From a plasmid: a stretch of DNA of 64,000 nt. Position numbers and translations under genes: made by a program. Below, one piece after another: positions 18,570-62,960 of the stretch. Where the stretch lies: the sequence record NZ_CP044066.1; one strand, 5' to 3'. The notes beneath the pieces are model-generated. The model made no database searches. It was given only the letters and a program-made list of their open reading frames with translations, and was not told where the DNA came from. How positions within the stretch are numbered: the first letter of the stretch is position 1; every line of letters begins with the position of its first letter.

Positions 18570-18622
18570 TTATGTCGCGTTACCAAGGAAATAGGTCGAG
18601 CATGCTCGAACTTTCCGGCGCA
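18570..18622. repeat. Repeated regulatory element, copy a (contains the perfect palindrome TCGAGCATGCTCGA at 18596..18609)
   Basis: TTTATGTCGCGTTACCAAGGAAATAGGTCGAGCATGCTCGAACTTTCCGGC is near-identical to copy c (46880..46940). Confidence 0.7.
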
Positions 18623-18632
18623 ACCATCTATC

Positions 18633-19793
18633 TCAGGACTGGTCTCCGGACTCATAACGCTCGAACAGCCGATAAAGTGCACGTCGGCTAATCCCCAGAG
18701 ATAGTGCAGCCCGGCTCTTATTCCCCTGGTGCTCCGCAACAGCGTGAACAGCCTGCTTCGGACTGATCACAGGACGTCTCTTCGCCTCCTGCGTCGCGTA
18801 GGTAGACAAGTAGGCGTTGGCCTTACTGACACGACTGTGCCCCGCGGCCTCCGCCACCCGTCGCTGCCCTTCCCGGTGCACCTCACGATCAATTCTGTGT
18901 GAGCCTTCCTTGATCGGCGCGAGCGCACCGGTGATGTCCGAATAAAGTCCTTGCAGGTACTCGTGGCGCAGGCCGTGCGCAGTCCGTCCCAACCGGCCGT
19001 CTTTCGTTACGCCATGTTTGGCCAGCAGATCGTAGAAGTGATCGGACCAGGAGTCATAACTGTGCGCATCAGGAATAGTGGAACCCGTCCGGCTGTTCGT
19101 GAAGCGTGCGGCGATCTCCAGCAGGTCATATTGCTCTTTTGGCCGCGTGATGGGGACGGGCCGGCTCCTGCCGCCCTTCGACCCCTCGCTGACATAGATG
19201 GCACCGTCTCGCAGATCCCGCACGGGCCGGAATTTGAATGCCTCCTCAACGCGAAGGCCGAATTTCCACATCAGGCGTAGTTGAACCCCTGCAAGGACAT
19301 CTTCTGCCTCGACTCTCCGGATCTCTGCTTCGATATCGATGCCCTTCGCCGACCAGCTCAGATCGTCTTGCGCTGTGTAATAGCGTTTCAAGCCTGCTGC
19401 TTTCCTATCCACGTAGCCTTCGAGCGTCAGCACGAGATTCGGCTTTCCCATCCAGTGGGCGATCGCCCGCAGGTACGTCAGCTTGTTCTCAATCGTACCG
19501 GCCGTCTGCCCCTTCTTCACCCAATACGTCACCAGCCACGCCACGTGCTTGTGACGGATCGACCAGGGCGACTCAATGGCATACCCACCGTCGTTCCGCA
19601 GCTCACGAATCGCCGCACATAAGCCGACGAGCCGATACTCCTGCGTTTTAACGCTCAGTGCATTTCGACTACGGCGCGTCTGGCTGTGAATCCGATCGAC
19701 ATTGTCCTCAAACAATGCGATCAACTCGCTCTCAAGGCGCTTTGGGAAGCCGTAGCTACGGATCTTCCCCCGGTAGTCAATTCTGATGCCCAT
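18633..19793 (-). CDS. Tyrosine recombinase (integrase family) with a C-terminal Fis-type HTH extension
   Basis: HGLRHEY box and AGHSRVSKANAYLSTY catalytic region, followed by KSRAALSLGISRRALYRLFERYE (HTH_8-like). An AGGAAA RBS precedes the ATG at 19793. Confidence 0.7.
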   Translation of the reverse strand: MGIRIDYRGKIRSYGFPKRLESELIALFEDNVDRIHSQTRRSRNALSVKTQEYRLVGLCAAIRELRNDGGYAIESPWSIRHKHVAWLVTYWVKKGQTAGTIENKLTYLRAIAHWMGKPNLVLTLEGYVDRKAAGLKRYYTAQDDLSWSAKGIDIEAEIRRVEAEDVLAGVQLRLMWKFGLRVEEAFKFRPVRDLRDGAIYVSEGSKGGRSRPVPITRPKEQYDLLEIAARFTNSRTGSTIPDAHSYDSWSDHFYDLLAKHGVTKDGRLGRTAHGLRHEYLQGLYSDITGALAPIKEGSHRIDREVHREGQRRVAEAAGHSRVSKANAYLSTYATQEAKRRPVISPKQAVHAVAEHQGNKSRAALSLGISRRALYRLFERYESGDQS

Positions 19794-20610
19794 CCTGTCT
19801 TTCCTGTTGCTCGTGCTGAGCCGCCGCGCTACGCGTTTCCGCGCACTTTGCTGTCCCATCCCGCAGTTGAAAGCCCCGTTCATCCAACCGCCGCCGACTG
19901 ATTGTCCCCATCGGCACAGGGCACTGCCTTCCTATCCTTTAGCGATAACATCGATCAACCAGACACAGGGAAGAACTGTGCTCCGGCTGCCCGTGAAGCT
20001 GCCCAAGCGGCTCGCGCCGCCCGGTCTCCACGGATACCCCGCCTGCCGCGTGCATGACGCGTTCCGCAACCCGCGGACGTTCCGGGGTCGCAAGCCTGCT
20101 GGGCAAATCGTTCTTGCGCATTCTGTTCCGGCTGCGCCTACCGGTCGTCATGTGAAGGGATTCGCGATAGCCGAAGGCCCAATCGCTTCCAATCCCCCGT
20201 CCCCAAGTCGATTCACCTTGGCCGCAGTGTGTCGGGCCGCCTGAACCGTACCCAGCGCTATCGCTGTAAGGACGTATCTTCCGTTGGATGATGGGTGTGC
20301 GACTGTGCGCCTCCCAATCGGTCTCAATATGTTCCAGCGCACGCTTGGGCGCTGAGATCGAGTGTTATCGCGGTGTGCAGCCTTCCTCAGTGTCGGCCAC
20401 TTTCTGCTTGATTAGACTGAAAAAAATGCCGGTTCAATTTCCGGCGGGCACAGTGCGGCTTCGCGAGGTTCTTCGCACGGAAGAACCGGATGCCGTTGTT
20501 GCCGCGCGAAGGCGGCGAGGTCGATGCGTCGGGGACGCGGTAAGAGCCCACAGAATAGCCGAACACCGGCGCATCGAACAACCGAAACGCGCGCGATTTT
20601 GGGAGGTTTC

Positions 20611-20643
20611 GACGACTTGACATTGAATTCTGCTCGGTAGAGT
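20611..20643 (+). promoter_or_regulatory. Conserved element promoter box, copy 3 (upstream of parM)
   Basis: GACGACTTGACATTG-N11-TAGAGT, with TTGACA at 20617..20622. Confidence 0.5.
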
Positions 20644-20770
20644 TGGTGACATAGGGAGGCACTAGGTGGACCTATCGGTGAGCATCTGTCAGTTGCTCGC
20701 CGATAGTCACCGAAGCATCTGCCATCAACTGTCAGATACCGGACGAAAGTCACCGGATCTGTCAGATTGA
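20643..20770 (+). repeat. Direct-repeat array between the promoter and parM (parC-like centromere/operator candidate)
   Basis: Three copies of ATCTGTCAG (20686, 20727, 20757) interleave with GTCACCG/GGTGAC motifs (20647, 20705, 20748). Confidence 0.45.
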
Positions 20771-20825
20771 ATCGGGCATTCCCTGTTCGTCATCAACCTC
20801 GCAACAAACCTCCCGGAGCGAATCC

Positions 20826-21857
20826 ATGCAGCAACAGTACGGCGAATCGAAGATCGCAAAGACTGCCACCCTTGCGGTCGATGTGGGCTATGGCAACACC
20901 AAGACCGCCTTTGCGCTCGGTTCCGAGATCAAAACGAGCATGTTCCCTTCGCTCGCCCCGCAGGCGGCCACCTCGAGCCTCACGCCCGAAAGCGGCACGA
21001 TCTTCCAGGCGCGCAAGGTGGTCAATGTCACGGTGGACGGCGCCCGGTATGAAGTCGGGCCCGGCGTGTCGCTGAGCGGGGCGTACAACACCGGACGTGC
21101 GCTGGCGGAGGATTACGTCACGACGCCGAACTATGCGGCGCTTCTCGCTGGAGCCCTCTTCTACTCCGGCGCTGCCGAAATCGATCGACTCGTCCTTGGC
21201 CTGCCGGTTCACAACACGCAGAAGTACGCCGGCTTCCTGCGCGACCGGTTCGTCGGTCAGCACGACTTCGGCTGGGGCGAAGTAATTGTGAAATCTGTGA
21301 TGCCGCTACCGCAGCCCCTCGGCACGCTCGTGACCTACATGCAGCAAAGCGGCAAGCAATACGACCCCGAAAACTCGTATCTCGTGATCGACGTGGGGTA
21401 CTTCACGACGGACTGGATCGTGGCCCGCGGCTACACGATGGACGATACCCGCAGCGGTGGCGTACCAGGTGGCGCGGCGCGCGTATATCAGCAGATCGCC
21501 AGCCTGATCGCGGCCGAGCAGGGTCAGCCGTTTGACGCGATCGAGCGCGTCGATCACGCGCTGCGCACGACGGGCAAGCTGCTGTTCTACAAACAGGATC
21601 TCGAACTGAGCCGCTACCTCCCCGAGGCAATGGCTGTCACCAATCCGGCGATCAAGGAGCTGCAATCGCGGGTGGGGCGCACCGATGATATCCGGGCCGT
21701 CATCCTGACCGGCGGCGGTGCGGCCCTCTACGCGCCGACGATTCGCGCGGCCTTCCCGCTGAACGACATTCACATGATGGACTCGCCGTGCTTCGCCAAC
21801 GTGCGAGGTTTCTACACCATTGGCGCCGCACGTCAGGCGACCAAGGCGGCCGCTTGA
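20826..21857 (+). CDS. ParM/StbA-family actin-like segregation ATPase
   Basis: The N-terminal phosphate-1 motif is LAVDVGYGNTKTAF, with a second motif LVIDVGYFTTDW, in an actin-fold protein of 343 aa. Confidence 0.7.
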   Translation: MQQQYGESKIAKTATLAVDVGYGNTKTAFALGSEIKTSMFPSLAPQAATSSLTPESGTIFQARKVVNVTVDGARYEVGPGVSLSGAYNTGRALAEDYVTTPNYAALLAGALFYSGAAEIDRLVLGLPVHNTQKYAGFLRDRFVGQHDFGWGEVIVKSVMPLPQPLGTLVTYMQQSGKQYDPENSYLVIDVGYFTTDWIVARGYTMDDTRSGGVPGGAARVYQQIASLIAAEQGQPFDAIERVDHALRTTGKLLFYKQDLELSRYLPEAMAVTNPAIKELQSRVGRTDDIRAVILTGGGAALYAPTIRAAFPLNDIHMMDSPCFANVRGFYTIGAARQATKAAA

Positions 21858-21873
21858 TCGACGGGGGGCACAT

Positions 21874-22314
21874 ATGGACAAGCTGGAGATGAAGGTCACG
21901 CTGACGTCCGACTCCACGCCAGAGCTGCTTCGCTATCTCAGCGGAATCTCCAGCGCCCGGGATCGCGCATTCATCCTGAAGCGGCTCGCAACCGTCGGGC
22001 TGTCGATGCTGGGCGACGGCGCGGGCGCCGACGCGATGCTTCTGCCGTCACCGTCCGCCGCATTGCCGACTGGGCGTCAGCCCGAAGCTGTGGAGCAACA
22101 GCAGGCTATGCAATCGACGCCGGCCGAGAAGACGCACGCCCCCGCGACGGTGCTTGAGCCTGCGGCAGTACCCTTGGCCCGTCCTGCGTCGGTGTCCCGC
22201 CCCGTCAATGATGAGGCAGTGGGCCAGCCAGATCCGGAGGACGCTCCTCTGGCTCTGGGATTCGACTTTCTGGATCTTGATGCCCTCAACGCAGCCACCG
22301 CTCAATTCGATTGA
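21874..22314 (+). CDS. Hypothetical protein, candidate ParR-like adaptor of the ParM module
   Basis: It lies immediately downstream of parM. Its N-terminal 60 aa are ordered, and the C-terminal half is Pro/Ala-rich and disordered. Confidence 0.35.
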   Translation: MDKLEMKVTLTSDSTPELLRYLSGISSARDRAFILKRLATVGLSMLGDGAGADAMLLPSPSAALPTGRQPEAVEQQQAMQSTPAEKTHAPATVLEPAAVPLARPASVSRPVNDEAVGQPDPEDAPLALGFDFLDLDALNAATAQFD

Positions 22315-22353
22315 GGACTTGACATACATATCCCTCTGGCAAGCTTGTACTAT
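22313..22353 (+). promoter_or_regulatory. Conserved element promoter box, copy 4 (variant with downstream TACTAT)
   Basis: GAGGACTTGACATAC...TACTAT, with TTGACA at 22319..22324. It precedes a small ORF. Confidence 0.4.
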
Positions 22354-22377
22354 CTCTTAACAAACCGAGGAGTAAAG

Positions 22378-22497
22378 ATGTTCGATTACCTGTCCACCAC
22401 CGCTGACGTGAATCGCTTTGTCTTCTACGTCGCAATCGGCTTCTGCGTCCTGCAAGCCGTCATCGAGGTCTACAAGGTGGTTCGCCGCCGTAACTAA
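22378..22497 (+). CDS. Small hydrophobic peptide (39 aa)
   Basis: GAGGAG RBS, sequence MFDYLSTTADVNRFVFYVAIGFCVLQAVIEVYKVVRRRN, followed by a strong terminator. Confidence 0.35.
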   Translation: MFDYLSTTADVNRFVFYVAIGFCVLQAVIEVYKVVRRRN

Positions 22498-22518
22498 CAC
22501 CTCGAGCGCGCTGAGAAA

Positions 22519-22553
22519 TAAAAAAAGCCCCAGCAATGCTGGGGCTTTGTTCG
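22519..22553. terminator. Bidirectional rho-independent terminator
   Basis: The stem AGCCCCAGC/GCTGGGGCT has a 3-nt loop and is flanked by an A-run and a T-rich tail. Confidence 0.7.
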
Positions 22554-22570
22554 TCAGGGATGGGCAAGCT

Positions 22571-22783
22571 TCAGTGAAGCGTGCCGTGGGCCAGGCAGAA
22601 GTCAGCGGCCGAGTCGAAGGACAGATTGCCTTTGACGAGCGTAAGATCGCGCGAGGGCTCGCGGCGATACACGTGAAAGAATTGCGCTTCCGACTGGATC
22701 GCCGGAACGTCGGACGTACCAGTCCGCCGCATCGCGTGAATCTGCAACTTGTTGACGATCGCGGTGAAGCCTTTTTGCGGCAT
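22571..22783 (-). CDS. Hypothetical protein (70 aa)
   Basis: AGGAGT RBS; sequence MPQKGFTAIVNKLQIHAMRRTGTSDVPAIQSEAQFFHVYRRE... It is the last gene of the leading-region-like block. Confidence 0.4.
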   Translation of the reverse strand: MPQKGFTAIVNKLQIHAMRRTGTSDVPAIQSEAQFFHVYRREPSRDLTLVKGNLSFDSAADFCLAHGTLH

Positions 22784-22886
22784 TGCATTACTCCTGAGAG
22801 AGAGCCTGCCGAGGTAAAGATCCGCCCTATGGGACGAACCCACAGGGCAGAAGATAAAAAGAAGCCGCCTCGAGGGCGGCGACGAA

Positions 22887-23957: not shown

Positions 23958-24177
23958 GGGATGACTCCTTTTGGGAGTGGTGGGTCGATGCCTGAGACAG
24001 GCGAAGGAACGCTTGCTCAAAAGACATCCCGGCGGCGAGCCAGAAGGTCTTTTCAGCATGGCGTTTGCGGTTGAGCGAAAGGGAGATGCGCTGCGGGACG
24101 GCAGCCAGGAGGAAGGAAAGAACTGCTACCGGAAAACCGGCAGCAGGAGGAACGTGTAACGGTTGGCGAACCCCGGA

Positions 24178-24738: not shown

Positions 24739-24747
24739 GTAGTTCCT

Positions 24748-25536: not shown

Positions 25537-25543
25537 GGGGATT

Positions 25544-26389: not shown

Positions 26390-26607
26390 TGCAAGGGATG
26401 GTCCTGACGGATGTCAGGCGCTGGTTCGATGCTCAATGAGCAAGGAAGCCCGTGGACTGCGCGCGTGAACGCACTTGCGTCATGCCGCGGCATGGCGCAA
26501 AGGCGCTGGTGCTGGGGAAAGAAGGGAATGGGCGAGCGGCACGTAGCCAACTTCGCGCTGATCGATGCGTGTGGACGCGGTGTTCCGTAAATCCTAGCCG
26601 AAGATTC

Positions 26608-26680
26608 GAGGCTCAAGAACCCGGAAAGCTCACCAAAACCATACGTCTTTCTGCCGAAATAGGTCGAGCATGCTCGGTAG
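26608..26680. repeat. Repeated regulatory element, copy b, in the divergent promoter region (palindrome TCGAGCATGCTCGg at 26664..26677)
   Basis: GAGGCTCAAGAACCCGGAAAGCTCACCAAAACCATACGTCTTTCTGCCGAAATAGGTCGAGCATGCTCGG shares the GAAAGCTCACCAA and palindrome blocks with copy c. Confidence 0.7.
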
Positions 26681-26985
26681 ATTTCATAATACGAAACAAA
26701 TGTATCTTCAGAACGGATACAAACGATTTAGATATTACTTAGATCTGATCTTCTTTTTATGCAGCTCTATCCCGTAAGTTGGGGGTAACTCACTAAAGCT
26801 GTCCTTTCTCACCCCGATAAGACGCATACATGTAACCGTCTTAAGGCCGCCTTCCGAAAAAGGGGCCCGAAAAAACGTAGCTTTCTGCCGGCTGCTGTGG
26901 CCGGGCGTTTCGTAATCTCTGCGGAGGCTTGACAACGCAAATCAAACGCTACGCTGGTTGTCATGTTCATCAACGAGAGTGAAAC

Positions 26986-28209
26986 ATGCCAGAAAAGAAG
27001 AAGAAACTTGATGGTCTATCGGTGCCGCCTGCGGAGTCGGCCAAGAAAGCCGATATCGTAGATTTTCCTGTCTCACGCCTGCAGGCCTCCATGGACGCTC
27101 GGTTGCGCGAGATCATGGGCCCCAGCCTCAGCGAGGATCAGCTTGGCCGCCTTGGCGACGCCATCCATAACATTCGGCGGGTGCGCGAGAAGATCGAGCG
27201 CGCGCTGCTCGAGATGGGCTCCGAGTTGCAGAACATTCATGACCTGTCGATGGAATCGGTCATCGGGGAGTTCGGCGACACGCGCGGGGCGCGGATGCGT
27301 GGCTGGACCAAGTTCAATCAACTCGCGAAGGAACTGCTCGAGCTTCAGCCCAACCAGGCGAAGCTGTATCTTGGCCTGTATGTCCGCTTCCAGAACCACA
27401 ATGGCGCACTGAGCAAGCTCAATACCGGCGAACTGATGATCCTGCAGCCCGCCGAGTACACCGATGAGGAAGTCGACGCTGTCATCGAGTTCAAGGACAC
27501 CGACCCAACGTACCGCCGCGGGAAGATCCGTGACTTCATCAAGCAACTGCGACGAAAGCACGAGCAGGTCATCGATGTGTCCACCCGTCTGGACATTGCA
27601 ACCTCTGAACTTGCCAACACGGTTCAGGACAATGCTGACAAAGACCTCGAAATCCGTCGGCTCAACGAAGAAGTATCGCGGCTTGCTGCGGAGCGCGATG
27701 CCGATCGCGATGCCCTGAGTCACGTGCGCGAAGAACTCACCCGGCATAACCATTCGCAGAGCATGCAGCAGATGCGTATCCAGGATCTGGAGCGCGAGAC
27801 CCGGGAGTTGCAGGAGCGCGTAGCGAGCGCGCGCGCGAATGCGCGCACCGAGACGGTGGAGGTACCGATTGTCCCCCCCGGCTACGCTACGATCGAAGAG
27901 GCGCTGGCCGCGAAGAATTCGGAGTTGGAAGCAGCACGGAGCCAGCTTGCCGATATCGAAAACCGGCGCCTCGGGATCGAACAAGAGATCAAGGACCGCG
28001 CTAGCGTTCTGGATCGTCGCGCGAAGGCCGACGGCGCACTCGCGACGCTTGTCGATCAGTTTGAGAAGACGGTCTCGGCGTTCGCGGCCACGCAACTGGC
28101 CGTGCAGATGGACGGCAGCGTCGATCAGTTCCAATCGACGCTCACGGTGCTTGACAGCATCGTGGGTCGCCTCCACGCAGATATTCGCGCTGCCCTCCAA
28201 ACTCGCTGA
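26986..28209 (+). CDS. Coiled-coil protein (407 aa), first gene of the regulatory operon
   Basis: It has long heptad-rich segments (IRRLNEEVSRLAAERDADRDALSHVREEL...). A TTGACA-N16-TACGCT promoter candidate lies at 26927..26954. Confidence 0.5.
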   Translation: MPEKKKKLDGLSVPPAESAKKADIVDFPVSRLQASMDARLREIMGPSLSEDQLGRLGDAIHNIRRVREKIERALLEMGSELQNIHDLSMESVIGEFGDTRGARMRGWTKFNQLAKELLELQPNQAKLYLGLYVRFQNHNGALSKLNTGELMILQPAEYTDEEVDAVIEFKDTDPTYRRGKIRDFIKQLRRKHEQVIDVSTRLDIATSELANTVQDNADKDLEIRRLNEEVSRLAAERDADRDALSHVREELTRHNHSQSMQQMRIQDLERETRELQERVASARANARTETVEVPIVPPGYATIEEALAAKNSELEAARSQLADIENRRLGIEQEIKDRASVLDRRAKADGALATLVDQFEKTVSAFAATQLAVQMDGSVDQFQSTLTVLDSIVGRLHADIRAALQTR

Positions 28210-28220
28210 TCAGACCTGCC

Positions 28221-29396
28221 ATGCAACAACAATCTTTGACGGCGGATTTTGAGCGCCTGCAATTGACCCGAATGACGTGCGATCGCATTCGTTCGGCCAA
28301 CTACCATCTCACCGCTCACCTCGCCGAAGCGCTGAGCGCGCACCCCCAGCTGGATGCCGTTCTGCACATTGATCGCGCGCATATCGACAAGCTGCGGAAG
28401 GCCGAGGCAACGCAACGGGACCTGATGGGTACGCCCTTCCTCGTTGTGGTACCGACACTCATGGACGTGCACGACTGGAAGTGTCTGACGGAGGGTACGA
28501 CTACCACCGTCGCCGTGGACAAGCTCCGCCACCAACTGCCCAAATGGAGCAACGACGACAAGCTTCGCCTCTTCTTCAACAACCGCCATTACATCTGGCT
28601 GATGGTCGAGCTGCTGCATGTGAGTATCCTCGCTGCGCCGCTCCTCGGCATCAGCAAAGAGCTCGCCGAGTACCTTCGATCGCTGCCGCAGCACGTTCTC
28701 GACATGGTTATCGCGAAGGTCGATTTCCCGATCTTCCGCTGGTGCCTCGACAACAGGCGCTTCTGGATCGACTTCGAAACATCGCGCCTGTCCTCGGATG
28801 CGATCGGCCACCATTTCTTGGCCACCGTGCCCATCCGCGCCGATCGGATCGAGGCGAACCAGAGTTGGACGAACCTCCGCCTCGACCCGTTGAAGAAGAA
28901 GGTCTACGGTGAATTGATGATCCGGCAATACTGTCGCGCCTCCACGGTCACGTCGCTGCTCGGTATCAATTCGACCAAGACTCGCCAGCTCTTCCAGTCA
29001 ATTCATGGAGCCTCTTCGCCGACGGGTCAGCTGCCGACCTCGACAGCATGGTACTTCGAACAACCGTTGCATCGCATGCAGGCAACGATGATGGTGACGC
29101 TGTACCGGATCGGTCTCGCCTTTGGGGGCAGTGTCCCTGAAGCATTCATTGCCGCCTACGACTTGTTCGACAAGTTCTTCGGCCCCGATTCGCGGATCTC
29201 CGCAGACCGGGCGTGCCACATCTGCCGATCGATGTCCACGGACACACAGCTGGACCTTGCCCCCTGCCGAAGTTGCCGCACCCCTTACCTTATCGCCAAC
29301 ACAGCGCCCAAGATCGAGCTCAGCAACAGCTTCTCGTGCCCGGGCTGCAGCGGGGCGCTGGGGAACGGACAACTCGGCCGCCGTCGCAAGCAATAA
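28221..29396 (+). CDS. Putative transcriptional activator with an FlhC-like C-terminal domain (zinc-binding Cys4) and a unique 230-aa N-terminal extension
   Basis: GQLPTSTAWYFEQPLHRMQATMMVTLYRIGLAFGGSVPEAFIAAYDLF resembles the FlhC core. The CHIC...CRSC...CPGC Cys cluster parallels the FlhC zinc site. Confidence 0.5.
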   Translation: MQQQSLTADFERLQLTRMTCDRIRSANYHLTAHLAEALSAHPQLDAVLHIDRAHIDKLRKAEATQRDLMGTPFLVVVPTLMDVHDWKCLTEGTTTTVAVDKLRHQLPKWSNDDKLRLFFNNRHYIWLMVELLHVSILAAPLLGISKELAEYLRSLPQHVLDMVIAKVDFPIFRWCLDNRRFWIDFETSRLSSDAIGHHFLATVPIRADRIEANQSWTNLRLDPLKKKVYGELMIRQYCRASTVTSLLGINSTKTRQLFQSIHGASSPTGQLPTSTAWYFEQPLHRMQATMMVTLYRIGLAFGGSVPEAFIAAYDLFDKFFGPDSRISADRACHICRSMSTDTQLDLAPCRSCRTPYLIANTAPKIELSNSFSCPGCSGALGNGQLGRRRKQ

Positions 29397-30078: not shown

Positions 30079-30111
30079 GCACGACTTGACATTGCCGCTC
30101 CGTCTGTAGGA
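30079..30111 (+). promoter_or_regulatory. Conserved element promoter box, copy 5
   Basis: GCACGACTTGACATTG-N11-TAGGAT, with TTGACA at 30085..30090. It precedes the lipoprotein gene. Confidence 0.5.
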
Positions 30112-30169
30112 TGAAATCAGGTAGTCCGACGGGTCTGCCACTCATCCAAACTCTGAGAAAGAAGAAATC

Positions 30170-38847: not shown

Positions 38848-40656
38848 TTACTTCCCCTCCCCATGGTCTTGCACCATGACGGTCGCCAGCAAGAGCGTGA
38901 AGGTGCGGGTCTTCGAGACGGTCTGCGAGCCACCGAGGATCATCGGCAGCGACTCGCCGAGCGTGCGACGCGTATTGGCGGTGTCGTCCTGGTCCAGAGC
39001 CGTCATCAGCACGGTTTGTCCGTTGCGGACGATGATGTCCTGCTTCGGAATGCCCTTGCCGACAATGTTGATCGTCTGCACCGACTGCTGGTTGTCGCCG
39101 GAGCCTGACGTGAACTTCTCGAGCGGGCCATCCTGCTTCGATTGGTCAAGCGCGATGGTGAGATTGACGTCATCGCGGGACGTCGCATCGGCGTATGCGG
39201 CAAGCTTGAAGCCCACCGTTGCCGTCGACGTCACGATGCCGGGAATGCCACCGGTGCCACCGGCCGTGGTCGTGGCGGGCGTCGAGCCGGATGCATACGA
39301 GAAGGTGCGACGGTTGTTGTACTGGAAGCCGTGCCGGTTCCGCATGGACACGGGGATGGTCAGACCGGATGTGACCGTGCCGTATTGCTTCAGCGCGTTC
39401 ACGATGGCCTGCGTGCCATTGAATCCTCCGGACGTGATACCCAGGCCGACACTGCCGGCAGCCGATGACACCAGCGTCGCCGGCGACAAAGCGTTGACCG
39501 TAAACCCCGGGATATTCTGCAGCGCCTTGGTCAGTATGACGTTCCAGTCGTAGCCGGCCTCACCCAAGTCCGCCACGGTCAGGTCGATCATCTGAAACTT
39601 GAAGATAATGACACGCGAGTAGATCGCGATCTGCCTCCGGATGATCTCGTCGGCGGCATCGACCGCCTCTTTGGTATCGCGCAGCGTGAGCACCCCGGTC
39701 GCCGGATTGAGCTCCGGGTTGCCGACCATCGTGAGCGCAGGCAGGATGCTCGCCTTGATCCCTTCGAGATCGTTCTGTTCCTTGATCTCGGCCTTCGCCG
39801 CAGCGTCAATCTGCGCCGACTGCCCCGATCCACCGCCGCCTGCACCACCGCCACCGGACGAGTTACCCTGCGCGGATTGCTTGAACTCGGTCGTGAACGA
39901 GTTGGTGCCACCTGCCATCGGCAGCTGCCAGGTCTTCGTCACCAGACGGTAGAAGCGCACCACGCCCTTCTCGGTGTTGTATTCCCAGTTGATACCCAGG
40001 CGCGTCGCGATCAGGTCGAGCATGCTCGCGAGGGGCATCTTCTCGCTGTTTCGAAACTCGACGTTCAGCGGGGTTTCGAGCAGCGCAGTGCTTTGCGTCA
40101 CGCCAGACGCGCCTCCGGCCGTCAGCGCAGTGGGGAGCGGCGAATTGAGGGCCGGTGCGGGACCAAGGCCTTGCGCGATCGGGTTGATGGCACCGGCCTG
40201 CCCAGGCTGCTGCGTGCGCAGCTGCTGGAGTGCCTGCGTGCCCAGCGATCGCGGCAGCAGCAGGTTCGGCGGCAGATAGACATCGGATTCGATCTTGACC
40301 GGAATCCCGGTGGCCATCTGCACGCGCTGGGCGGCTACCGCGAGCGACATCGTGCGCTCCGGGAACATCACCAGCGTGTCAACATTGTTCCGTAGCGCCA
40401 CGGGCAAGGTCACGTTCCGCGCGACGGGGACGCGCTTGCCCGCGAGGAAAGGCCGATCCACGTCCTGCTCCGCTTCTACCGCAGCCCGGTCGCGGCGGAT
40501 ACGCGCGTAAAGTTCCTCGGTGGTCTGCGTGACCTGCGCGGTGGTGTTGTCCGTGGTGCGTCGCACATCGTTGAGCAGCGTGGGCGAGACGCAGCCAGCC
40601 AGCGTGCTGCACACGAGGATTGCACCGGTCGTCGGACGGAAGATTCGATTCAGCAT
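38848..40656 (-). CDS. PilN-like lipoprotein secretin (GspD/PilQ secretin family)
   Basis: Lipobox LAGC. N0/N1-like domains are followed by a C-terminal secretin domain (VRNGQTVLMTALDQDDTANTRR...FTLLLATVMV). The ATG at 40656 lies 7 nt after the pilL stop. Confidence 0.8.
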   Translation of the reverse strand: MLNRIFRPTTGAILVCSTLAGCVSPTLLNDVRRTTDNTTAQVTQTTEELYARIRRDRAAVEAEQDVDRPFLAGKRVPVARNVTLPVALRNNVDTLVMFPERTMSLAVAAQRVQMATGIPVKIESDVYLPPNLLLPRSLGTQALQQLRTQQPGQAGAINPIAQGLGPAPALNSPLPTALTAGGASGVTQSTALLETPLNVEFRNSEKMPLASMLDLIATRLGINWEYNTEKGVVRFYRLVTKTWQLPMAGGTNSFTTEFKQSAQGNSSGGGGAGGGGSGQSAQIDAAAKAEIKEQNDLEGIKASILPALTMVGNPELNPATGVLTLRDTKEAVDAADEIIRRQIAIYSRVIIFKFQMIDLTVADLGEAGYDWNVILTKALQNIPGFTVNALSPATLVSSAAGSVGLGITSGGFNGTQAIVNALKQYGTVTSGLTIPVSMRNRHGFQYNNRRTFSYASGSTPATTTAGGTGGIPGIVTSTATVGFKLAAYADATSRDDVNLTIALDQSKQDGPLEKFTSGSGDNQQSVQTINIVGKGIPKQDIIVRNGQTVLMTALDQDDTANTRRTLGESLPMILGGSQTVSKTRTFTLLLATVMVQDHGEGK

Positions 40657-46732: not shown

Positions 46733-46763
46733 GAAAAGCTATGCGATTTTGCGGAGCTTTTTG
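46733..46763. repeat. Left arm of a 28-bp inverted repeat flanking the T4SS divergent control region
   Basis: GAAAAGCTATGCGATTTTGCGGAGCTTT has its reverse-complement partner at 47117..47148, matching 27 of 28 bases. Confidence 0.6.
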
Positions 46764-46872: not shown

Positions 46873-46940
46873 CAGAAAGCTCACCAATTTATGTCGTGTT
46901 TCTGCGGAAATAGGTCGAGCATGCTCGAACTTTCCAGGCT
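46873..46940. repeat. Repeated regulatory element, copy c (perfect palindrome TCGAGCATGCTCGA at 46915..46928)
   Basis: GAAAGCTCACCAATTTATGTCGTGTTTCTGCGGAAATAGGTCGAGCATGCTCGAACTTTCCAGGC lies between the divergent virB8 and virB11 operons. Confidence 0.7.
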
Positions 46941-47116: not shown

Positions 47117-47148
47117 GAGAAAGCTCCTCAAAATCGCATAGCTTTCCG
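47117..47148. repeat. Right arm of the 28-bp inverted repeat
   Basis: GAGAAAGCTCCTCAAAATCGCATAGCTTTCC is the reverse complement of the left arm. Confidence 0.6.
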
Positions 47149-47186
47149 GACTCCACGCGAGCCCGCGGCCGCCAACAATAGCGGGC

Positions 47187-51394: not shown

Positions 51395-52132
51395 ATGAAA
51401 AAGTGGATCATCAAGGCCGCAGCAGCCGCCTCCCTGACGTTCAGCTCTCTGGCGCACGCGGGCGGCATGCCAGTCATCGACTGGGTCAATCTTGTCCAGA
51501 ACACCATGACCGCCCTGCAGTCGGTGAAGGACGAGGTCTATCAGAACACCAACATCGTCTACCAGTACAAGATGATGGCGAATCAGCTCCTGCAATCGAC
51601 GGGGCTCGATGTCGCTGACCTTTCCGAGCAACTGGGGGCGTTGCGCAACGAGATCAGCAGCTACGAGGAGTACGGCAACACGCTGAAAGACCTGTACGGC
51701 GGTCTCTCCGGCAACACGGATTACCTCAACCGCGTGCAAAGCATGATGGTGTCGGCTGGCAAGTCGCCCGGCGAGTGGCTCGCCGATCAGGCATCGCTGC
51801 TGAGCAATGGCAACAAGACTGCCAAGAATCTTTTCAATCTCGGTGCATCAGTGTTCAAAAACACCGAGACGCTTGCAAAGCGTCGCGAGAAGATCCAGAA
51901 GCAGATGAAGCTGTCGCCTACGGCTCAGGCTACCGCGCAGACCACCAATCAGATGCTTGATGTCTTGGCGAGCCAGAACGCCGATCTTCTCCAGCTGATG
52001 AGCGCCAAGACGCAGTCGGACGCTGACAAGGATCAAAAGTCATTGGCTGTCCAGTCCGAGTCGACTGAGTTGGCGAAACAACTTCAGAGTGACCGTGAGT
52101 CGCAGCGTCAGAAGATTCTGGATCTGAAATGA
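51395..52132 (+). CDS. virB5: VirB5/TrbJ-like minor pilus component
   Basis: AGGAG RBS, signal peptide, a helical bundle of about 220 aa, and an ATGA overlap with virB6. Confidence 0.6.
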   Translation: MKKWIIKAAAAASLTFSSLAHAGGMPVIDWVNLVQNTMTALQSVKDEVYQNTNIVYQYKMMANQLLQSTGLDVADLSEQLGALRNEISSYEEYGNTLKDLYGGLSGNTDYLNRVQSMMVSAGKSPGEWLADQASLLSNGNKTAKNLFNLGASVFKNTETLAKRREKIQKQMKLSPTAQATAQTTNQMLDVLASQNADLLQLMSAKTQSDADKDQKSLAVQSESTELAKQLQSDRESQRQKILDLK

Positions 52133-53211
52133 CGAGTCAATCCATTGCCGCGTGGATCCGCACGGCGCTGGCGTCGATCGGCGTCCTGCTGTGCCTTGCC
52201 ACGACTCCGGCGCATGCGCAAGGTGCTCCATCTGGTGAGGGCAACAACAATTCCGCCGGCGGCGGCACTAGCGCCCCGCAGCAGATCGGCGCCGTATCCC
52301 GACCAGGCGACATCGGCGCGGGGGTCAAGAAGGCCCTCGCCGGGATGGACAGAATGCGGAACGGACTCATTTCTGGCGCTACAGCCCTTAGCGATCGTGT
52401 CCGTGTTGACGCGGACAAGGTGGCTTTCGGACTCGGCGTCATTGCGATCCTGCTCGCCGGCATCCGCTTTGCGTCGACAAACGATGCTGTCGCCGCATGG
52501 ACAGACATGATGGAAACAATACTCATCCTCGGCATCTTTACCGCGCTGTACATCGGCTACACCGACTTCGGTCCAGGCATCTTCGTTTGGTTCGACAAGA
52601 TCGCAACGAGCTTCAATGCCGGCGTCAGCGTCTACGACCTGCCTGCAACGCTAGCAAGCACGGGGGGGAAGTTCTATGACTCCATCGTGCGGATCCTTCA
52701 AGCCGCACTTGGCAATCCGCTTCGACTGATTGACGCCGTCGTCGCAGCATTCGCGTTCCTGCTCGCCATGCTAGCTGTCCTGTGCGCGGCCCTTATCTAT
52801 GCGTGGTTCATCCTAGTAGGACACCTCATGGTGGCAGTGGGCATCGCTATTGGGCCGTTGGCCGTCGCATTCGGAATGCTGGACCTTTCTCGCAAGTACT
52901 TTTTTGCCTGGCTCGACTATATGGTCACAGGTTCTATGTACATGGTGATAGCGGCGATCATTGCCCAGCTGGTCTCCAGCACGCTCCAAAGCACCGTGAC
53001 CGATATCACCAATGTCGGGACTGACACGACAGTTGCTGCCGCATATGCTCTCTCTGTCGCTGTTGTTCTCGTCTTCATTGCGATGGAGATTCCAAAGATC
53101 GCAGGTTCGATCTTCGGCACAGGTGGCGGGATCAGCGGCACTGGCGGCTTCAAGATACTCGGCCGCGGGGCGTGGAATCTCGGCAGTAAGCTTGCCGGCG
53201 GGAAGAAGTGA
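52129..53211 (+). CDS. virB6: VirB6/TrbL-like polytopic inner-membrane protein
   Basis: 360 aa with a signal peptide, 6 to 7 TM helices and a Gly-rich C-terminal tail (GTGGGISGTGG). Confidence 0.75.
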   Translation: MTSQSIAAWIRTALASIGVLLCLATTPAHAQGAPSGEGNNNSAGGGTSAPQQIGAVSRPGDIGAGVKKALAGMDRMRNGLISGATALSDRVRVDADKVAFGLGVIAILLAGIRFASTNDAVAAWTDMMETILILGIFTALYIGYTDFGPGIFVWFDKIATSFNAGVSVYDLPATLASTGGKFYDSIVRILQAALGNPLRLIDAVVAAFAFLLAMLAVLCAALIYAWFILVGHLMVAVGIAIGPLAVAFGMLDLSRKYFFAWLDYMVTGSMYMVIAAIIAQLVSSTLQSTVTDITNVGTDTTVAAAYALSVAVVLVFIAMEIPKIAGSIFGTGGGISGTGGFKILGRGAWNLGSKLAGGKK

Positions 53212-57107: not shown

Positions 57108-57109
57108 TC

Positions 57110-57724: not shown

Positions 57725-57787
57725 CCCGCATCAATCTATTACCAACCTATTCGGCCACTTGCTGGCCATTCAACCGGAGATATCAAC

Positions 57788-58636: not shown

Positions 58637-58837
58637 CTGCTTAGTGACACGATAGCTCTCGGGCACCTTCGGGTGCCTAGGGCGACCAAGTGACACTTGG
58701 TCTCAGATTCTGCCATTAAGTGCACGTGCCCAGAGGACAGCTTCTGACACTTGCTAGCATCTTCTACCTGTTGCAGGCACTTGGTCTGCTCGTCCGCCGC
58801 CGGCGCCCACGTCCGCTGACGCTTTCATCATCCGGTT

Positions 58838-60565
58838 ATGACTCTCGTTGAAGCAATTGAAAAGCTGAATCCGTCGCAGCGCGAGGTGGTCGAGTGCCGC
58901 GGACATTGCGTCGCAGTAGCTGTGCCGGGTGCTGGGAAGACTGCCACGATCGCGGCGAAGGCTGCATTAATGCTTGAAAGCCCACACCTGACGATCGGCG
59001 CTGTCACCTTCAGTAAGGACGCGGCTGTGGAGTTACGAGACCGGATTCTGGCGCTGACCGGATCAACAGCGAAGAGGCGCCTCATCGCCGGCACATTCCA
59101 TTCGTTGGCCTACAAGCAACTCTCCTTGGTGGCAGGTAAGCGGCCCGACATCGCAACTGACGGAGAGCGTACGGCGATTCTGACGCAAGTGCTGCACGAT
59201 TCCGGTTTGGAAATGAAGCTTGAAGACGCCATCGCTGCGATTGAGCGCATTAAGACCGCGCTCAATGCCCCGTCCATGGACTCAGCCGAGGGGCGATTGT
59301 TATCTTCATATCAAAACGCCCTTCAGCGCAACGGCCGCGTCGACTTCCAGGATCTCCTCAGATACGCGGTACAAGGGATGCAGCAAGGCACCATCAGTCC
59401 GTACAAGATGGACGCCTTGTTGGTCGATGAATATCAAGACGTCGATTCGCATCAGGCCTTGTGGACGGCGCTTCATGCCAGGGCTGGCGCTGCGGTCACC
59501 ATTGTGTGCGACGACGACCAGTCAGTGTATGGCTTTCGTTCGGCGATGGGTCTGCGTGGCATCAAGGCATTCGCCGACGAGTTTGATCCGCAGCAAATCG
59601 TTCTTGGCGTCAACTACAGATCCCACGAAGAGATTCTGTCAGTTGCCGACAAAGTGATCCGCAACAACGCTGAACGAATCGTCAAAGAACTGGTTTCGCA
59701 CCGTGGTCCCGGTGGCTCCGTTTCGTTCACCCGTCACGATGACGAGTACGAGGAAGCTGTTGCCGCCGTCGAAGCGATGGCGGCGGCAGTGAGTGGCGGT
59801 AGTACTGCGGCCGTTCTTGCTCGCACAAATCGAATCCTTGATCCCGTTGAAGCCGTATGCCGTGCACACGGAATCAAATACCACCGAGCGGCCGGCCGCT
59901 CCATACTTGATCGCCCAGAGTCGGCGCTGATGGGTACCTTGCTCGAACTGGTCGAGCAGACCCGGATGGGAGGGCTTGATGCCGTCCTGGGCTTCGCAGG
60001 GATAGGGACGGCGGAATTGCAGACATTGCACCACCTCACCTCTTCGCTTAAGGAAGGCGAGCGGGTTAAGAAGAAGGATCTCGTCGCTGCGGGACTGGGT
60101 GAAGACGCCGCAGAGAAGTACCGTGACCTGACAAAGCGGCTGGAAGAGTGGTGTTCGCTGTGCGCAAGACAGTTCTATGCGCTCATTATCGACGGCGTCT
60201 TCGAATGGATGATGCAATGGGCGCGGTCAGACCAAGCAAAGCGCGCGATCACCACCACTTATGACGTACTTTCCAGGCTGCATGGCAGTTTCTCTGACCG
60301 TCTTGAATATCTACGTCGAAAGAACAACGAGCCGGCCGAGGATGCCGTCATCCTTACCACCTTCCATTCAAGCAAGGGGCTGGAGTGGGACCATACCGCT
60401 CTTCTTCGTCTAGAAGAGAGCGTCATACCCGATGAAGGTAGCACCGAGGCAGAGGAGCGCAGGTTGTTTTATGTGGCACTCACGAGAGCGAGACGCCACA
60501 TGATTCTGTCCACGGCCCAAAAGCATCCCACCTCGCGCTTTGTCATCGAATCAGGCATCGCGTAG
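58838..60565 (+). CDS. UvrD/Rep-family SF1 DNA helicase (second copy on the element)
   Basis: Walker A AVPGAGKT; motifs TFHSLAY, LLVDEYQDVD, VCDDDQSVYGFRSA, TFHSSKGLEWDH and FYVALTRAR. Confidence 0.85.
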   Translation: MTLVEAIEKLNPSQREVVECRGHCVAVAVPGAGKTATIAAKAALMLESPHLTIGAVTFSKDAAVELRDRILALTGSTAKRRLIAGTFHSLAYKQLSLVAGKRPDIATDGERTAILTQVLHDSGLEMKLEDAIAAIERIKTALNAPSMDSAEGRLLSSYQNALQRNGRVDFQDLLRYAVQGMQQGTISPYKMDALLVDEYQDVDSHQALWTALHARAGAAVTIVCDDDQSVYGFRSAMGLRGIKAFADEFDPQQIVLGVNYRSHEEILSVADKVIRNNAERIVKELVSHRGPGGSVSFTRHDDEYEEAVAAVEAMAAAVSGGSTAAVLARTNRILDPVEAVCRAHGIKYHRAAGRSILDRPESALMGTLLELVEQTRMGGLDAVLGFAGIGTAELQTLHHLTSSLKEGERVKKKDLVAAGLGEDAAEKYRDLTKRLEEWCSLCARQFYALIIDGVFEWMMQWARSDQAKRAITTTYDVLSRLHGSFSDRLEYLRRKNNEPAEDAVILTTFHSSKGLEWDHTALLRLEESVIPDEGSTEAEERRLFYVALTRARRHMILSTAQKHPTSRFVIESGIA

Positions 60566-60834
60566 CTCAAGACTCGCTCTCGCCTGGAGTCAGAACTGGA
60601 CTTCAATGTACGTGCGCCAGCGTTGTTTGTGTTCGGTACGACGATCTGAGGAAATGAAACTCGTCTCACGGCCGACATCAACGTGAAGCGAGTTGAGCGC
60701 GGCGGCAACATATTGCTGGGGATCCGAGAAAAAATGCCTTCAGCCCCAAGGACAAAGATAGAGCCGGCCTCACCACGGACCAGATGACAGCTGTGGGCAA
60801 CAGACAGCCAAGGCCTAAGGAGCATCCTCCAGCT

Positions 60835-62148
60835 CTAGACTCCGGTCTTTCCAGTGAGAATAAAATTCAAGATATCGTCGGAGGATGGCTGTCCCCACGT
60901 TTGATCGGCAAGCCACCTGTAGAAGCTGGTTTGCGCGAGCTTGGTGGGTCGCTTCGATGCGCTCAGGCGAAGGTCCGCGGCGGCGCATTGGCTGTTGTAG
61001 CTCTCAATGAGTTGAGCCTGTTCCTCTGTAGCCAGTTCGGCGAAGTACTCGTTAGCTTGAGGCAAACGAGCGGCGATGAGCATCTCCATAGCCTCAGCGG
61101 GTGACTTTGCCTTTGGCTTCGGCTGCGAAGCTTCCTCTTTCTCGTTCGCCGCTTCCTGCTTCGCCATTCCTTTGCCCCATGCCTCAGCCAGGGCCTTCCG
61201 GAAATAAGCGGGGACATTGTCGATCGCGGGCGCGTTTTTCTTTGCCTGACGGGCTTTCACGTAAGCCAGCGCTTCTCGCACCGGCTCCGCACCATGCGTC
61301 TTGGCCAGCTTGCGGGCTTCGCTCGACGGCAGACCGAGCTTCACCATAGCCTGGATCAATTCGCCAAAACCCTCGTCCTCTGGCGCGCTGGACTCCTTGC
61401 GCGAGATCTTGAACTGAAGATCCGAGACTGATCGGCCTACCTTGTGCTCGATGAGCTCGATGTTGTGGTCGGACACCTCACAAATCTCTGCTATGCACGG
61501 GTTTAGGACGGCACGCTTGAAGATCTTGTACTCCTTGTATTTCGTCTCGCCTTCCTCGCGACCCAGGATCAGATTTCGAAACACATTCAGCGGGATCTTT
61601 GCCGTCATCCCAACGCGCTCATAGCGAACCGTATTTTCCCAGAGCGCCAGTGAGTGAGCGCGCCTGAAAAGACGGGCGATGCGCATGTCGATCATGGCGT
61701 ACCGCTCAGGATTGAGCAGTTCCTCTCGGATCTGTGGTGCGAACGAGTAAGAGAGCAATGATCCAGTGATCTTCGCTCCAGCAAGAAGTGTGGACCCAGT
61801 CCAGGTAGCTGTGCCGTCGCTGTTGAGTTGATCCCAATCCACGACTGTTCGCATCAACGACTTGGCAGTCTCCTTGATGTAGCCCGTGTCCTTCGTCGTG
61901 AGCGCCAGATTCGACATCATCTCGGGTATCGAAATCTGAAACGTGTCGGCCGTGCCGTTTTGCCCAATGCGAAGCTCAATTGCGTTCTTGATCAAGGCAT
62001 TGAAGAGCCGGCGCTGTTGAAGCGTGAGAGCCCCGCCTACTGGGGAGACATGGATTGCCTGGACCGCCTTCTTGAACGGCTCCGGGACTTCTGGCTGTTG
62101 AAACAGCGCAATCTGGCCGGCCTTCTGATTCGGCTTTCCCTTCGCCAT
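60835..62148 (-). CDS. repA: Plasmid replication initiator protein (RepA/TrfA-like winged-helix Rep)
   Basis: MAKGKPNQKAGQIALFQ...FQISIPEMMSNLALTTKDTGYIKETAKSLMRT. An AGGTG RBS sits upstream of 62148. The iteron array lies immediately upstream. Confidence 0.7.
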   Translation of the reverse strand: MAKGKPNQKAGQIALFQQPEVPEPFKKAVQAIHVSPVGGALTLQQRRLFNALIKNAIELRIGQNGTADTFQISIPEMMSNLALTTKDTGYIKETAKSLMRTVVDWDQLNSDGTATWTGSTLLAGAKITGSLLSYSFAPQIREELLNPERYAMIDMRIARLFRRAHSLALWENTVRYERVGMTAKIPLNVFRNLILGREEGETKYKEYKIFKRAVLNPCIAEICEVSDHNIELIEHKVGRSVSDLQFKISRKESSAPEDEGFGELIQAMVKLGLPSSEARKLAKTHGAEPVREALAYVKARQAKKNAPAIDNVPAYFRKALAEAWGKGMAKQEAANEKEEASQPKPKAKSPAEAMEMLIAARLPQANEYFAELATEEQAQLIESYNSQCAAADLRLSASKRPTKLAQTSFYRWLADQTWGQPSSDDILNFILTGKTGV

Positions 62149-62299
62149 CCGATGCACCTGCAAGTCGTAATGGGTGAAATCTTAGCCCCTAAGTGTTCAC
62201 CTATCAAGCCCTGTCTCATGTAGCGTCAGCAGGGCCGGCCAACGAAGAAAGCGCTTTGATTTCGTAGGCTTACCGTTACCCCTTGAGAATCTTCGCTAC

Positions 62300-62960
62300 C
62301 TCAAATCTGTTCACCGTGGGAGCCGAAACGCTACCCAAATCTATACACCTTTCTCCGACTGGACTGGGCGACTGCGATATCGAGCGAGAAAGGTGAAGCT
62401 TTTTGGTGAGCTTTCCGCCTCGAAGAGCCTCAGGCATCGATTTTCCCCAATAGCGTTCACCTTCACCGTCTCCTGGGCGGCTCTCGAAAGGGGTTGGACG
62501 GCAACAAGTTAGGATCCACTTTCAAGTACCCCCCAAAGATGTTCACCTATTACTTCACCCAAAAAGGTTCACCTGTTTCTACGCGGCACACGTTAGTGGG
62601 CGAACACTTTACTCGTAAGGCTTGGCAAATCGCCACTTCAGCTCAATGCACAGGCGAAGGTGAAGAAATCTGTGGGTCAGGGCTCTTCGAAAAAGCCCCA
62701 AAACTGTTCACCAATGAATCGACCCAAAATGTTTCACCTTTGGCGAGCTGTGGAGCGCGCTGAGGATCAGGGCCCCAAGAAGCTTCACCTCTTAGGGCCC
62801 CAAATCTGTTCACCTCATTGGGAGAATGCCCAGATCCCCATATCTTTTCACCCTACCCCCAAATCCCCAGCCCTTTGTCCCCAACGCATTGCACCATTTC
62901 CCCATATCCCCAACCCCTTCGCCCCAATACTATGCACCTAGCACCCAACACCTTTCACCT
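62300..62960. repeat. Iteron array / candidate oriV upstream of repA
   Basis: At least 8 copies of CCCCAAA-N2-4-GTTCACC, e.g. CCCCAAAGATGTTCACC 62531, CACCCAAAAAGGTTCACC 62557, GCCCCAAAACTGTTCACC 62696, GACCCAAAATGTTTCACC 62721, GCCCCAAATCTGTTCACC 62797 and CACCCAACACCTTTCACC 62942. Confidence 0.7.

Follow-up and report, generated by a model that had tools for sequence, protein, structure and literature searches.

The 64,000-nucleotide stretch analysed here (sequence record NZ_CP044066.1, hereafter the window) comes from a Cupriavidus pauculus plasmid with the backbone of pMOL28 and pHG1. Positions 15010-60562 are syntenic with pMOL28 of C. metallidurans CH34, the window is also related to pHG1 and other Cupriavidus megaplasmids, and one of its proteins, here called preFlhC, is 100% identical to a C. 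pauculus plasmid protein. Relatives of the window are typed as having a MOBH relaxase and MPF_T. The loci of interest are an integrase gene beside an OrfX-HU-hyp308 string, a divergent region between an ssb-primase operon and an operon for preFlhC and an FlhC-family protein, a second divergent region between the virB8-pil and virB11-traD operons, and the region upstream of rep (Table 1). A 14-bp palindrome recurs at the first three, and comparison among related plasmids indicates that it is a selected, putative protein-binding site of the plasmid backbone.

Table 1. Palindromes, boxes and associated genes discussed in the text (positions in the window)
Feature	Position	Strand	Setting or sequence
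Palindrome copy a	18596..18609		wider conserved element 18569-18616; 24 nt beyond integrase stop, 76-89 nt upstream of OrfX ATG
Palindrome copy b	26664..26677		divergent intergenic region, ssb-primase operon versus preFlhC-FlhC operon
Palindrome copy c	46915..46928		between divergent virB8-pil and virB11-traD operons; centre 246 nt from virB8 ATG, 266 nt from virB11 ATG
Box 1 at b	26624..26651	+	GAAAGCTCACCAAAACCATACGTCTTTC; start 41 nt ahead of palindrome core
Box 1 at c	46875..46902	+	GAAAGCTCACCAATTTATGTCGTGTTTC; start 41 nt ahead of palindrome core
virB8-proximal box	46734..46761	-	59-86 nt upstream of virB8 ATG; left arm of inverted repeat I2
virB11-proximal box	47119..47146	+	GAAAGCTCCTCAAAATCGCATAGCTTTC, 0 mismatches; 41-68 nt upstream of virB11 ATG; right arm of I2
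Box upstream of preFlhC promoter	26858..26885		TTGACA at about 26929; conserved block AAAAGCTACCCCAAAAAGCGTAGCTTTC in alignment of eight relatives
rep-side box ('copy d')	62388..62415	-	GAAAGCTCACCAAAAAGCTTCACCTTTC; box alone, no palindrome; 225-252 nt upstream of rep
Predicted ssb-operon -10 hexamer	26591..26596	-	TAGGAT; homology to pMOL28 -10 and conserved ATCCTA block
Decayed T1-allele remnant	16563..16581		GAAGAAAAACGTTCCTTTC; 14 nt after endonuclease stop, beside terminator hairpin
One-mismatch match	40016..40029		within pilN-like coding sequence; outside the system
OrfX	17939..18520	-	193 aa, no Pfam match; heads the OrfX-HU-hyp308 string, which lies downstream of copy a
Integrase	18633..19883	-	integrase domain and C-terminal Fis-type helix-turn-helix (HTH_8)
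preFlhC	26986..28209	+	407 aa, all-helical coiled coil; directly upstream of FlhC-like gene; candidate regulator partner
FlhC-family protein	28221..29396	+	391 aa; FlhC domain at residues 245-376, CxxC motif present three times; candidate subunit for DNA binding

Two of the three copies, a and c, are exact matches to TCGAGCATGCTCGA, while copy b, TCGAGCATGCTCGG, differs from it at one position and retains a perfect 12-bp core, CGAGCATGCTCG, at 26665-26676. Six matches to TCGAGCATGCTCGA with two or fewer mismatches were found in the window against 0.70 expected, and none of 100 shuffled sequences reached six. Copies a and c have 48 nt in common at 90% identity (18569-18616 and 46888-46935), bearing out an original prediction, made from the sequence of this stretch alone, that about 50 bases of the two are near-identical. 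Some 33 nt, CG..TT.C....GAAATAGGTCGAGCATGCTCG, are common to all three copies, which have the same orientation: the side with a box or box-like element (described below) faces the minus-strand operon, and the palindrome lies on the far side. Copies b and c are 246-316 nt away from the flanking start codons, and GAGCATGCTC is invariant at site b across eight aligned relatives. The gene contexts first proposed for a, b and c were correct. A fourth, inverted copy had also been proposed at 62385-62440, upstream of repA; three of the four are palindromes (two exact, one with a single mismatch) and this last contains neither a palindrome nor a remnant of one. What it has in common with b and c is the adjacent box, GAAAGCTCACCAA-N11-TTTC, together with about 17 nt of flank in common with b. 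Because the box and not the palindrome is common to them, 'copy d' belongs to a different motif family, and the proposed link between the palindrome and replication is not supported.

A palindrome centred on CATG is present at one or more of the same places in 18 relatives, based on a scan of eleven loci and of nine contigs retrieved through preFlhC homologues (L016-L024, seven of them distinct), supplemented by direct inspection; L016-L024 and the C. pampae locus (L006) span only some of the three positions. Ten plasmids compared over the whole backbone, the window included, carry the palindrome at two or all three places, namely the virB8-virB11 region, the region between the ssb operon and preFlhC-FlhC, and a third place near the integrase, HU and endonuclease genes. 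Eight further relatives, covered only around preFlhC or around integrase/OrfX, have it at one or two places. The sequence of the site differs between plasmids in a structured manner. pMOL28 lacks TCGAGCATGCTCGA and instead contains three perfect copies of AGGAACATGTTCCT (0.08 expected), two of which occupy the orthologous b and c positions, and the same arrangement was observed in EM10, C. pauculus 614, pHG1, C. taiwanensis, C. oxalaticus, NH9 and P-10. Two alleles can be distinguished: T1, GGAACATGTTCC, in pMOL28, EM10, C. pauculus FDAARGOS_614, pHG1, C. taiwanensis and C. oxalaticus; and T2, YGAGCATGCTCR, in the window, NH9, P-10 and L016-L024. They differ at positions +/-3 and +/-6 in both half-sites, and because these changes are symmetric the dyad is preserved across the alleles.

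Individual orthologues refine the extent of the site. At position c, pMOL28 has AGGAACATGTTCCT, and P-10 and NH9 have TGAGCATGCTCA and TAAGCATGCTCA, respectively; orthologues of site a adjoin OrfX homologues in C. pampae (L006:3249), EM10 (L007:12026, GTGAGCATGCTCAC), L016, L018, L020 and L022. A single plasmid, L022, carries CGAGCATGCTCG at a and TGAGCATGCTCA at b, indicating that the outermost base tolerates Y/R (pyrimidine/purine) variation. The full site exceeds 14 bp, as the perfect palindrome extends to 26 bp in L020 and 24 bp in C. taiwanensis. Within T2, the arm adjoining the core varies with the regulator sub-clade, being AAATAG in the window's and AAAA(A/C)(A/C)G in that of NH9, P-10 and L023. 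No intact T1 site is present in the window, which has a decayed T1 remnant (Table 1) at the place that holds a perfect AGGAACATGTTCCT in pMOL28, EM10, pHG1, C. taiwanensis, C. oxalaticus and C. pampae. The sharing of one allele by the sites on a plasmid, the symmetry of the switch and the decay of the old-type site in the window together point to a cognate factor encoded by the plasmid itself.

The second motif, GAAAGC-N16-GCTTTC, is a box of 28 bp that often includes CAAAATCG in its interior; it has 15 matches in the window at two or fewer mismatches against 3.2 expected. Six copies are intergenic (Table 1). Those proximal to virB8 and virB11 form the arms of a 38-nt inverted repeat (I2; 87% complementary) that brackets copy c. 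Corresponding boxes are present in pMOL28, pHG1, NH9 and P-10, and the box upstream of rep also occurs in the C. pauculus FDAARGOS_614 plasmid (L009:8939). Where box and palindrome adjoin, at b and c, the distance from the start of the box to the start of the 12-bp core is exactly 41 nt in the window, pMOL28, pHG1 and P-10, and thus in both clades; this fixed register puts the two centres about 33 bp, or three helical turns, apart.

The gene pair to the right of copy b includes a DNA-binding candidate. The FlhC-like protein matches Pfam PF05280 at E=4.7e-8, above the curated cut-off, and the FlhC chains 8j56_C (E=2e-4) and 2avu_E in the PDB; its open reading frame follows that of preFlhC after 12 nt. 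An AlphaFold2 model of preFlhC (pLDDT, the predicted local distance difference test score, of 75) is all-helical with a 108-residue coiled coil. Searches of preFlhC against Pfam and NCBIfam returned coiled-coil noise only and no ParB domain, and neither Foldseek (E of 0.001 or better) nor a profile search found a PDB relative. A role as a ParB clamp like BisD of ICEclc was therefore considered for preFlhC and rejected, as no domain, fold or PDB relative supports a protein of ParB type. In PLSDB the FlhC-like pair was found on 70 plasmids, every one of them from Burkholderiales; one (NZ_LT984809.1) has two FlhC-like places, one at 75% identity.

A comparison of 28 backbone proteins across nine plasmids, representing about 45 kb of backbone, revealed that preFlhC and the FlhC-like protein split along the palindrome allele by far the most sharply. 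For preFlhC, minimum identity within T1 and T2 is 67% and 57% and maximum identity between them 28% (27% between; 57-97% within); for the FlhC-like protein the corresponding values are 71%, 75% and 40% (38% between; 71-96% within). No split by allele was observed for the integrase (up to 87% identity between clades), HU, ssb, primase, the pil proteins, TraD or the helicase. Several other candidates for the cognate factor were rejected. The ParB of the window (63153-63923 and beyond) and its Rep are 78% and 81% identical, respectively, to those of the T1 plasmid of C. pauculus 614, and neither the integrase, with its Fis-type helix-turn-helix (HTH), nor HU tracks the allele. No homologue of OrfX was detected in the loci examined from pHG1, C. 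taiwanensis, NH9 and P-10, all of which keep palindromes; the P-10 locus ends about 800 nt beyond its third site.

Promoter positions are available from the transcription start map of strain CH34, in which TSS_137004, on the minus strand of pMOL28 and ranked 28 of 5,763, precedes the first ssb-operon gene by 250 nt and has the -35 element TTGCCAGGCC and the -10 element TGTAGAGTTA (PMC9045368). We located these at L001:15031-15040 and 15010-15019, respectively. Relative to this start the pMOL28 b-palindrome occupies -104 to -117 and a box-like element -63 to -90, so that the palindrome is clear of the ssb-operon promoter. In an alignment of eight T2 intergenic regions the homologue of the -10 (ATCCTA on the plus strand) is conserved and the -35 region is not; by extrapolation, palindrome b of the window would occupy about -80 to -93, and box 1 about -40 to -67. 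No pMOL28 starts in the virB8-virB11 region or at the preFlhC promoter are among those listed, which come from unchallenged cells, and a simple sigma-70 scan gave no strong consensus at the palindromes. The lack of such a consensus and of a virB8-virB11 start in pMOL28 would fit promoters that depend on an additional factor.

Taken together, we posit, with a probability of roughly 55%, that the 14-bp palindrome is the core of the site for the plasmid's FlhC-family protein and its coiled-coil partner, a putative master regulator related to FlhDC, AcaCD, SetCD and BisDC. The pair is favoured because, among the proteins compared, these are the only DNA-binding candidates that track the allele. 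The site would be dyad-symmetric and some 30-45 bp long, with the palindrome as its core, and part of the pMOL28/pHG1-family backbone. Bound to this site, 80-117 nt upstream of the leftward promoters, the regulator complex would, with whatever occupies the neighbouring box, control the leftward OrfX-HU, ssb-primase and virB8-pil operons. The rightward operons, preFlhC-FlhC (by autoregulation) and virB11-traD, might be controlled as well, and the two alleles would give non-cross-reacting regulons in related plasmids. Which protein binds is what we infer from the comparative evidence, and it may activate or repress; the characterised relatives of the FlhC family (FlhDC, AcaCD, SetCD and BisDC) are activators.

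Several observations weigh against assigning the palindrome to this pair. VirB6 also splits by allele (minimum identity within T1 and T2 of 62% and 67%, maximum between them of 48%; 45% between), as do VirB4 and VirB8 marginally, and part of the match between allele and regulator may therefore reflect shared ancestry of the virB/regulator region. The match amounts essentially to one deep split and one weaker nested split, and the proteins compared leave room for a co-varying regulator elsewhere on the plasmids. Both alleles occur on one plasmid in EM10 and in C. pampae, and the third T1 palindrome is flanked by the 3' ends of convergent genes, next to a terminator, and has no promoter that it could control. 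Plasmids of Burkholderia, Ralstonia and Paraburkholderia encode equally distant FlhC-like pairs and keep the box, yet in the region between ssb and preFlhC no CATG-centred palindrome was found in these or in the Cupriavidus USMAHM13 plasmid with the pair. The box is unchanged between T1 and T2 even though both the FlhC-like protein and preFlhC change. Activation by the pair is also not evident in pMOL28, where the ssb-operon promoter is very strong and no start was detected for the preFlhC operon.

The proposed system has parallels among conjugative elements. AcaCD of IncA/C plasmids and SetCD of SXT/R391 ICEs are FlhDC-like activators that are specific to their elements, are not interchangeable and use unrelated motifs in the class-2 position, AcaCD binding upstream of tra promoters (PMC4207636). 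As in those systems, an FlhC-family protein is encoded directly downstream of its partner on elements with a MOBH relaxase, a family-specific motif occurs at transfer, leading-region and autoregulatory control regions, and the allele switch on the Cupriavidus plasmids parallels their non-interchangeable pairs of activator and motif. The cis architecture differs. AcaCD sites are many, directional, non-palindromic and directly upstream of the -35, whereas here three putative palindromic sites lie 80-117 nt from a mapped or inferred start, those at b and c in fixed register with a box. The class-2 position is not that of the palindrome (-104 to -117 in pMOL28), and in the window about -40 to -67 would be occupied by the box. 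The partner, a coiled coil of about 400 aa, is also unlike the small FlhD-like proteins.

Resemblance to the E. coli FlhD4C2 box, AAYGSSNNAAATAGCG-N10-12-CGCTATTTNNSSCRTT (PMC9962212), is confined to one clade. T2 sites read ..CCGGGGAAATAGCA-TGAGCATGCTCA-CGCCATTT.., and their arms, (C)CGGGGAAATAGC(A) ... (C)GCCATTT, flank the 12-bp palindrome, which takes the position of the spacer. They match 12-20 of 28 specified positions, with 13 of 22 sites matching at least 16, a value reached by 0.2% of random 44-mers from the window (mean 8.6, standard deviation 2.4). The window's own three copies match only 13-15 of the 28 positions, and T1 sites, at 6-12, do not match at all, which weighs against assigning the palindrome to the FlhC-like pair. 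Furthermore, the spacer is unconserved in E. coli and is the most conserved part of the Cupriavidus sites, and the proteins have only the FlhC C-terminal domain in common (E=2e-4 to PDB 8j56_C). We regard the resemblance of the T2 sites as a lead and not as proof of membership.

Among the alternatives, an operator for a different plasmid-encoded dimeric repressor, exerting global repression in the manner of KorA, is rather unlikely but survives best. Perfect short palindromes at several control regions are typical of dimeric HTH repressors, and the IncP (RK2) KorA/KorB system has such palindromes repeated at conjugative-plasmid backbone control regions and two motif classes that may act together over a few hundred bp. 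Repression could also explain why no pMOL28 start was detected in unchallenged cells for virB8, virB11 and preFlhC, the last of which appears silent despite a consensus TTGACA -35, and the partial comparison of the plasmids leaves space for an unseen co-varying repressor. However, a search in and beside the three intergenic regions for small HTH or ribbon-helix-helix genes, or hidden small regulator genes, yielded frame artefacts only, no KorA-like repressor gene was found near the palindrome sites in the window, and the integrase, HU, ParB and Rep do not follow the allele. KorA operators overlap the -10. The Cupriavidus palindrome, unrelated to them in sequence, is more than 80 nt from the start, neither overlaps nor abuts the core promoter, and in pMOL28 stands upstream of a very active one; at b and c it is also far from the start codons. 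As for KorB, a repressor of the ParB family, the single member of that family encoded in the window is closely related to that of a plasmid with the other allele. What remains of the original prediction of a regulon operator is a cis element under selection and with dyad symmetry, located at the transfer, leading-region and regulator operons; the analogy with KorA/KorB is set aside.

Two further possibilities draw on ICEclc, in which the ParB-like BisD loads at two palindromic bisS sites, and promoters carry a weak inverted repeat, its spacer 12 bp long, that is bound by the FlhC-like BisC (PMC12409273). ICEclc and the Cupriavidus plasmid are conjugative elements of MOBH type with the partner gene preceding the FlhC-like gene and an ssb region nearby, and both display a two-tier cis code: two bisS sites there and three palindromes here, in each case with weak promoter-proximal inverted repeats (12-16-bp spacer). 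It is conceivable, though doubtful, that the Cupriavidus pair uses such a code without a ParB fold, the partner recognising three palindromic anchors over 28 kb and bridging to, or communicating with, box-bound promoter complexes. If so, the alleles would represent orthogonal specificities, and related megaplasmids could share a cell without cross-activating their transfer genes.

Less probable still is a parS- or bisS-like loading site, with a clamp or bridging protein that would travel or loop from the three palindromes to the promoter-proximal boxes, in the manner of BisD from bisS or of KorB from its operator OB. The small number of perfect palindromes, their distance from start codons, the second, spacer-bearing inverted-repeat motif at promoters, as for BisC (PMC12409273), the bisD-bisC gene order and the one T1 site without an adjacent promoter would all fit it. 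BisD, however, has an N-terminal ParB/CTP-clamp domain, whereas the Cupriavidus partner has no ParB/CTPase domain in Pfam or NCBIfam and its helical coiled-coil model matches no ParB-like fold; the partition ParB does not track the allele. In addition, bisS (GAGCTATCCCCnGGGGATAGCTC) is unrelated in sequence to the Cupriavidus palindrome, and BisC lacks the FlhC zinc site, whereas the Cupriavidus FlhC-like protein keeps three CxxC motifs.

It is very improbable that the neighbouring integrase-domain protein uses the palindrome for recombination or resolution. Copy a is close to the stop codon of an integrase with an HTH_8 domain, and the third site stays near the integrase in T2 plasmids, but the integrase is 44-45% identical both to those of NH9 and P-10, which share its allele, and to that of pMOL28, which does not. 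Tyrosine-recombinase cores typically have a 6-8-bp spacer, against a 2-4-bp centre here, and recombination between direct repeats 8 and 20 kb apart would delete backbone. We give as little credence to a structural hairpin in RNA or transferred single-stranded DNA, whether a terminator, single-strand promoter or nick-site hairpin. The symmetric substitutions, which look compensatory, do keep the dyad, a scan for terminators picks out copy a, downstream of the integrase on the minus strand, and the third T1 site abuts a terminator. The stem is nevertheless only 5 bp, folding is no more stable than in shuffled sequences (z-scores of -0.8 to -1.3 for the three copies and +1.3 for the site in pMOL28), positions 15000-64000 contain no Rfam match, and within a clade the sequence itself, not just pairing, is invariant while the flanks diverge.

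Chance recurrence, or a generic dispersed repeat of the repetitive extragenic palindrome or bacterial interspersed mosaic element (REP/BIME) type, can be dismissed given the shuffles, the orthologous positions in 18 related plasmids, and searches in which the 18-mer ATAGGTCGAGCATGCTCG occurred in five contigs among 185,579 species genomes (four singletons in unrelated phyla and the orthologous a-site on a C. pampae plasmid contig, the only homologous context) and the 80-nt element had one real match, EM10, among 72,556 plasmids. The scatter in unrelated contexts that had been named as grounds for abandoning the operator idea was accordingly absent from the 18-mer scan. The extra one-mismatch match at 40016 is itself attributable to chance, since it lies in the coding sequence of a pilN-like gene, and this coding 14-mer recurs in pMOL28 with two mismatches.

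For Cupriavidus megaplasmids, whose pMOL28/pHG1 backbone carries heavy-metal resistance, hydrogen-oxidation and symbiosis functions, a literature search found no study of transfer control and no account of the sites or the regulator. The present analysis supplies a cis map comprising three palindromes, about six boxes, a 41-nt register, a candidate regulator pair and a natural specificity switch (GGAACATGTTCC versus YGAGCATGCTCR). The FlhDC-derived master regulators of conjugation (AcaCD, SetCD, BisDC) would be extended by it to a third architecture, in which the partner is neither FlhD-like nor ParB-like.

Further observations concern the surrounding backbone. On EM10 plasmid p352-3, three GGAACATGTTCC sites are accompanied by GTGAGCATGCTCAC (L007:12026-12039) upstream of the OrfX homologue, and C. 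pampae combines CGAGCATGCTCG at OrfX (L006:3249) with a perfect GGAACATGTTCC at the endonuclease junction (L006:5834); this co-occurrence of both alleles suggests that the integrase-OrfX module moves between backbones along with its site. VirB6 (52129-53211) is the only non-regulatory backbone protein with a strong split by allele clade, which may reflect linked exclusion or mating-pair specificity. In pMOL28, an insertion of IS1086 (L001:15405-16500) separates the start of preFlhC from its promoter (TTGACA, L001:15358), which in strain CH34 may leave the regulator operon uncoupled.

Across eight plasmids the ssb-operon leader (26390-26590, minus strand; L001:14756-15005 in pMOL28, where it forms a 250-nt 5' untranslated region) shows far stronger conservation than the remainder of the intergenic region, and it includes hairpin-like blocks, for example CCTGGCGGATGCCAGG. 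Its role may be that of a structured regulatory leader, or of a single-strand promoter (Frpo-like) for a leading-region operon. A hairpin, GCCCGC-CAACAATA-GCGGGC (47166-47186), ends at the virB11 ATG, and the identity of the sequence CCGCCAACAATAGCGGGCAT in the window, pMOL28, NH9 and P-10 suggests translational or transcriptional control of virB11. A promoter-like unit, ACGACTTGACATTG-N~17-TAGG(A/C)T, is repeated at 11152-11185, 20612-20645, 30081-30114 and 15599-15624, just upstream of plus-strand genes (a 383-aa open reading frame, PRTRC protein D, hyp271 and the endonuclease), and the TTGACAttg -35 of the same unit precedes preFlhC in pMOL28 and EM10. Finally, iteron-like TTCACC repeats at 62300-62560, with the rep-side 28-bp box among them, lie between rep (60835-62163) and the ParB gene, both on the minus strand, and this region is probably the replication origin.

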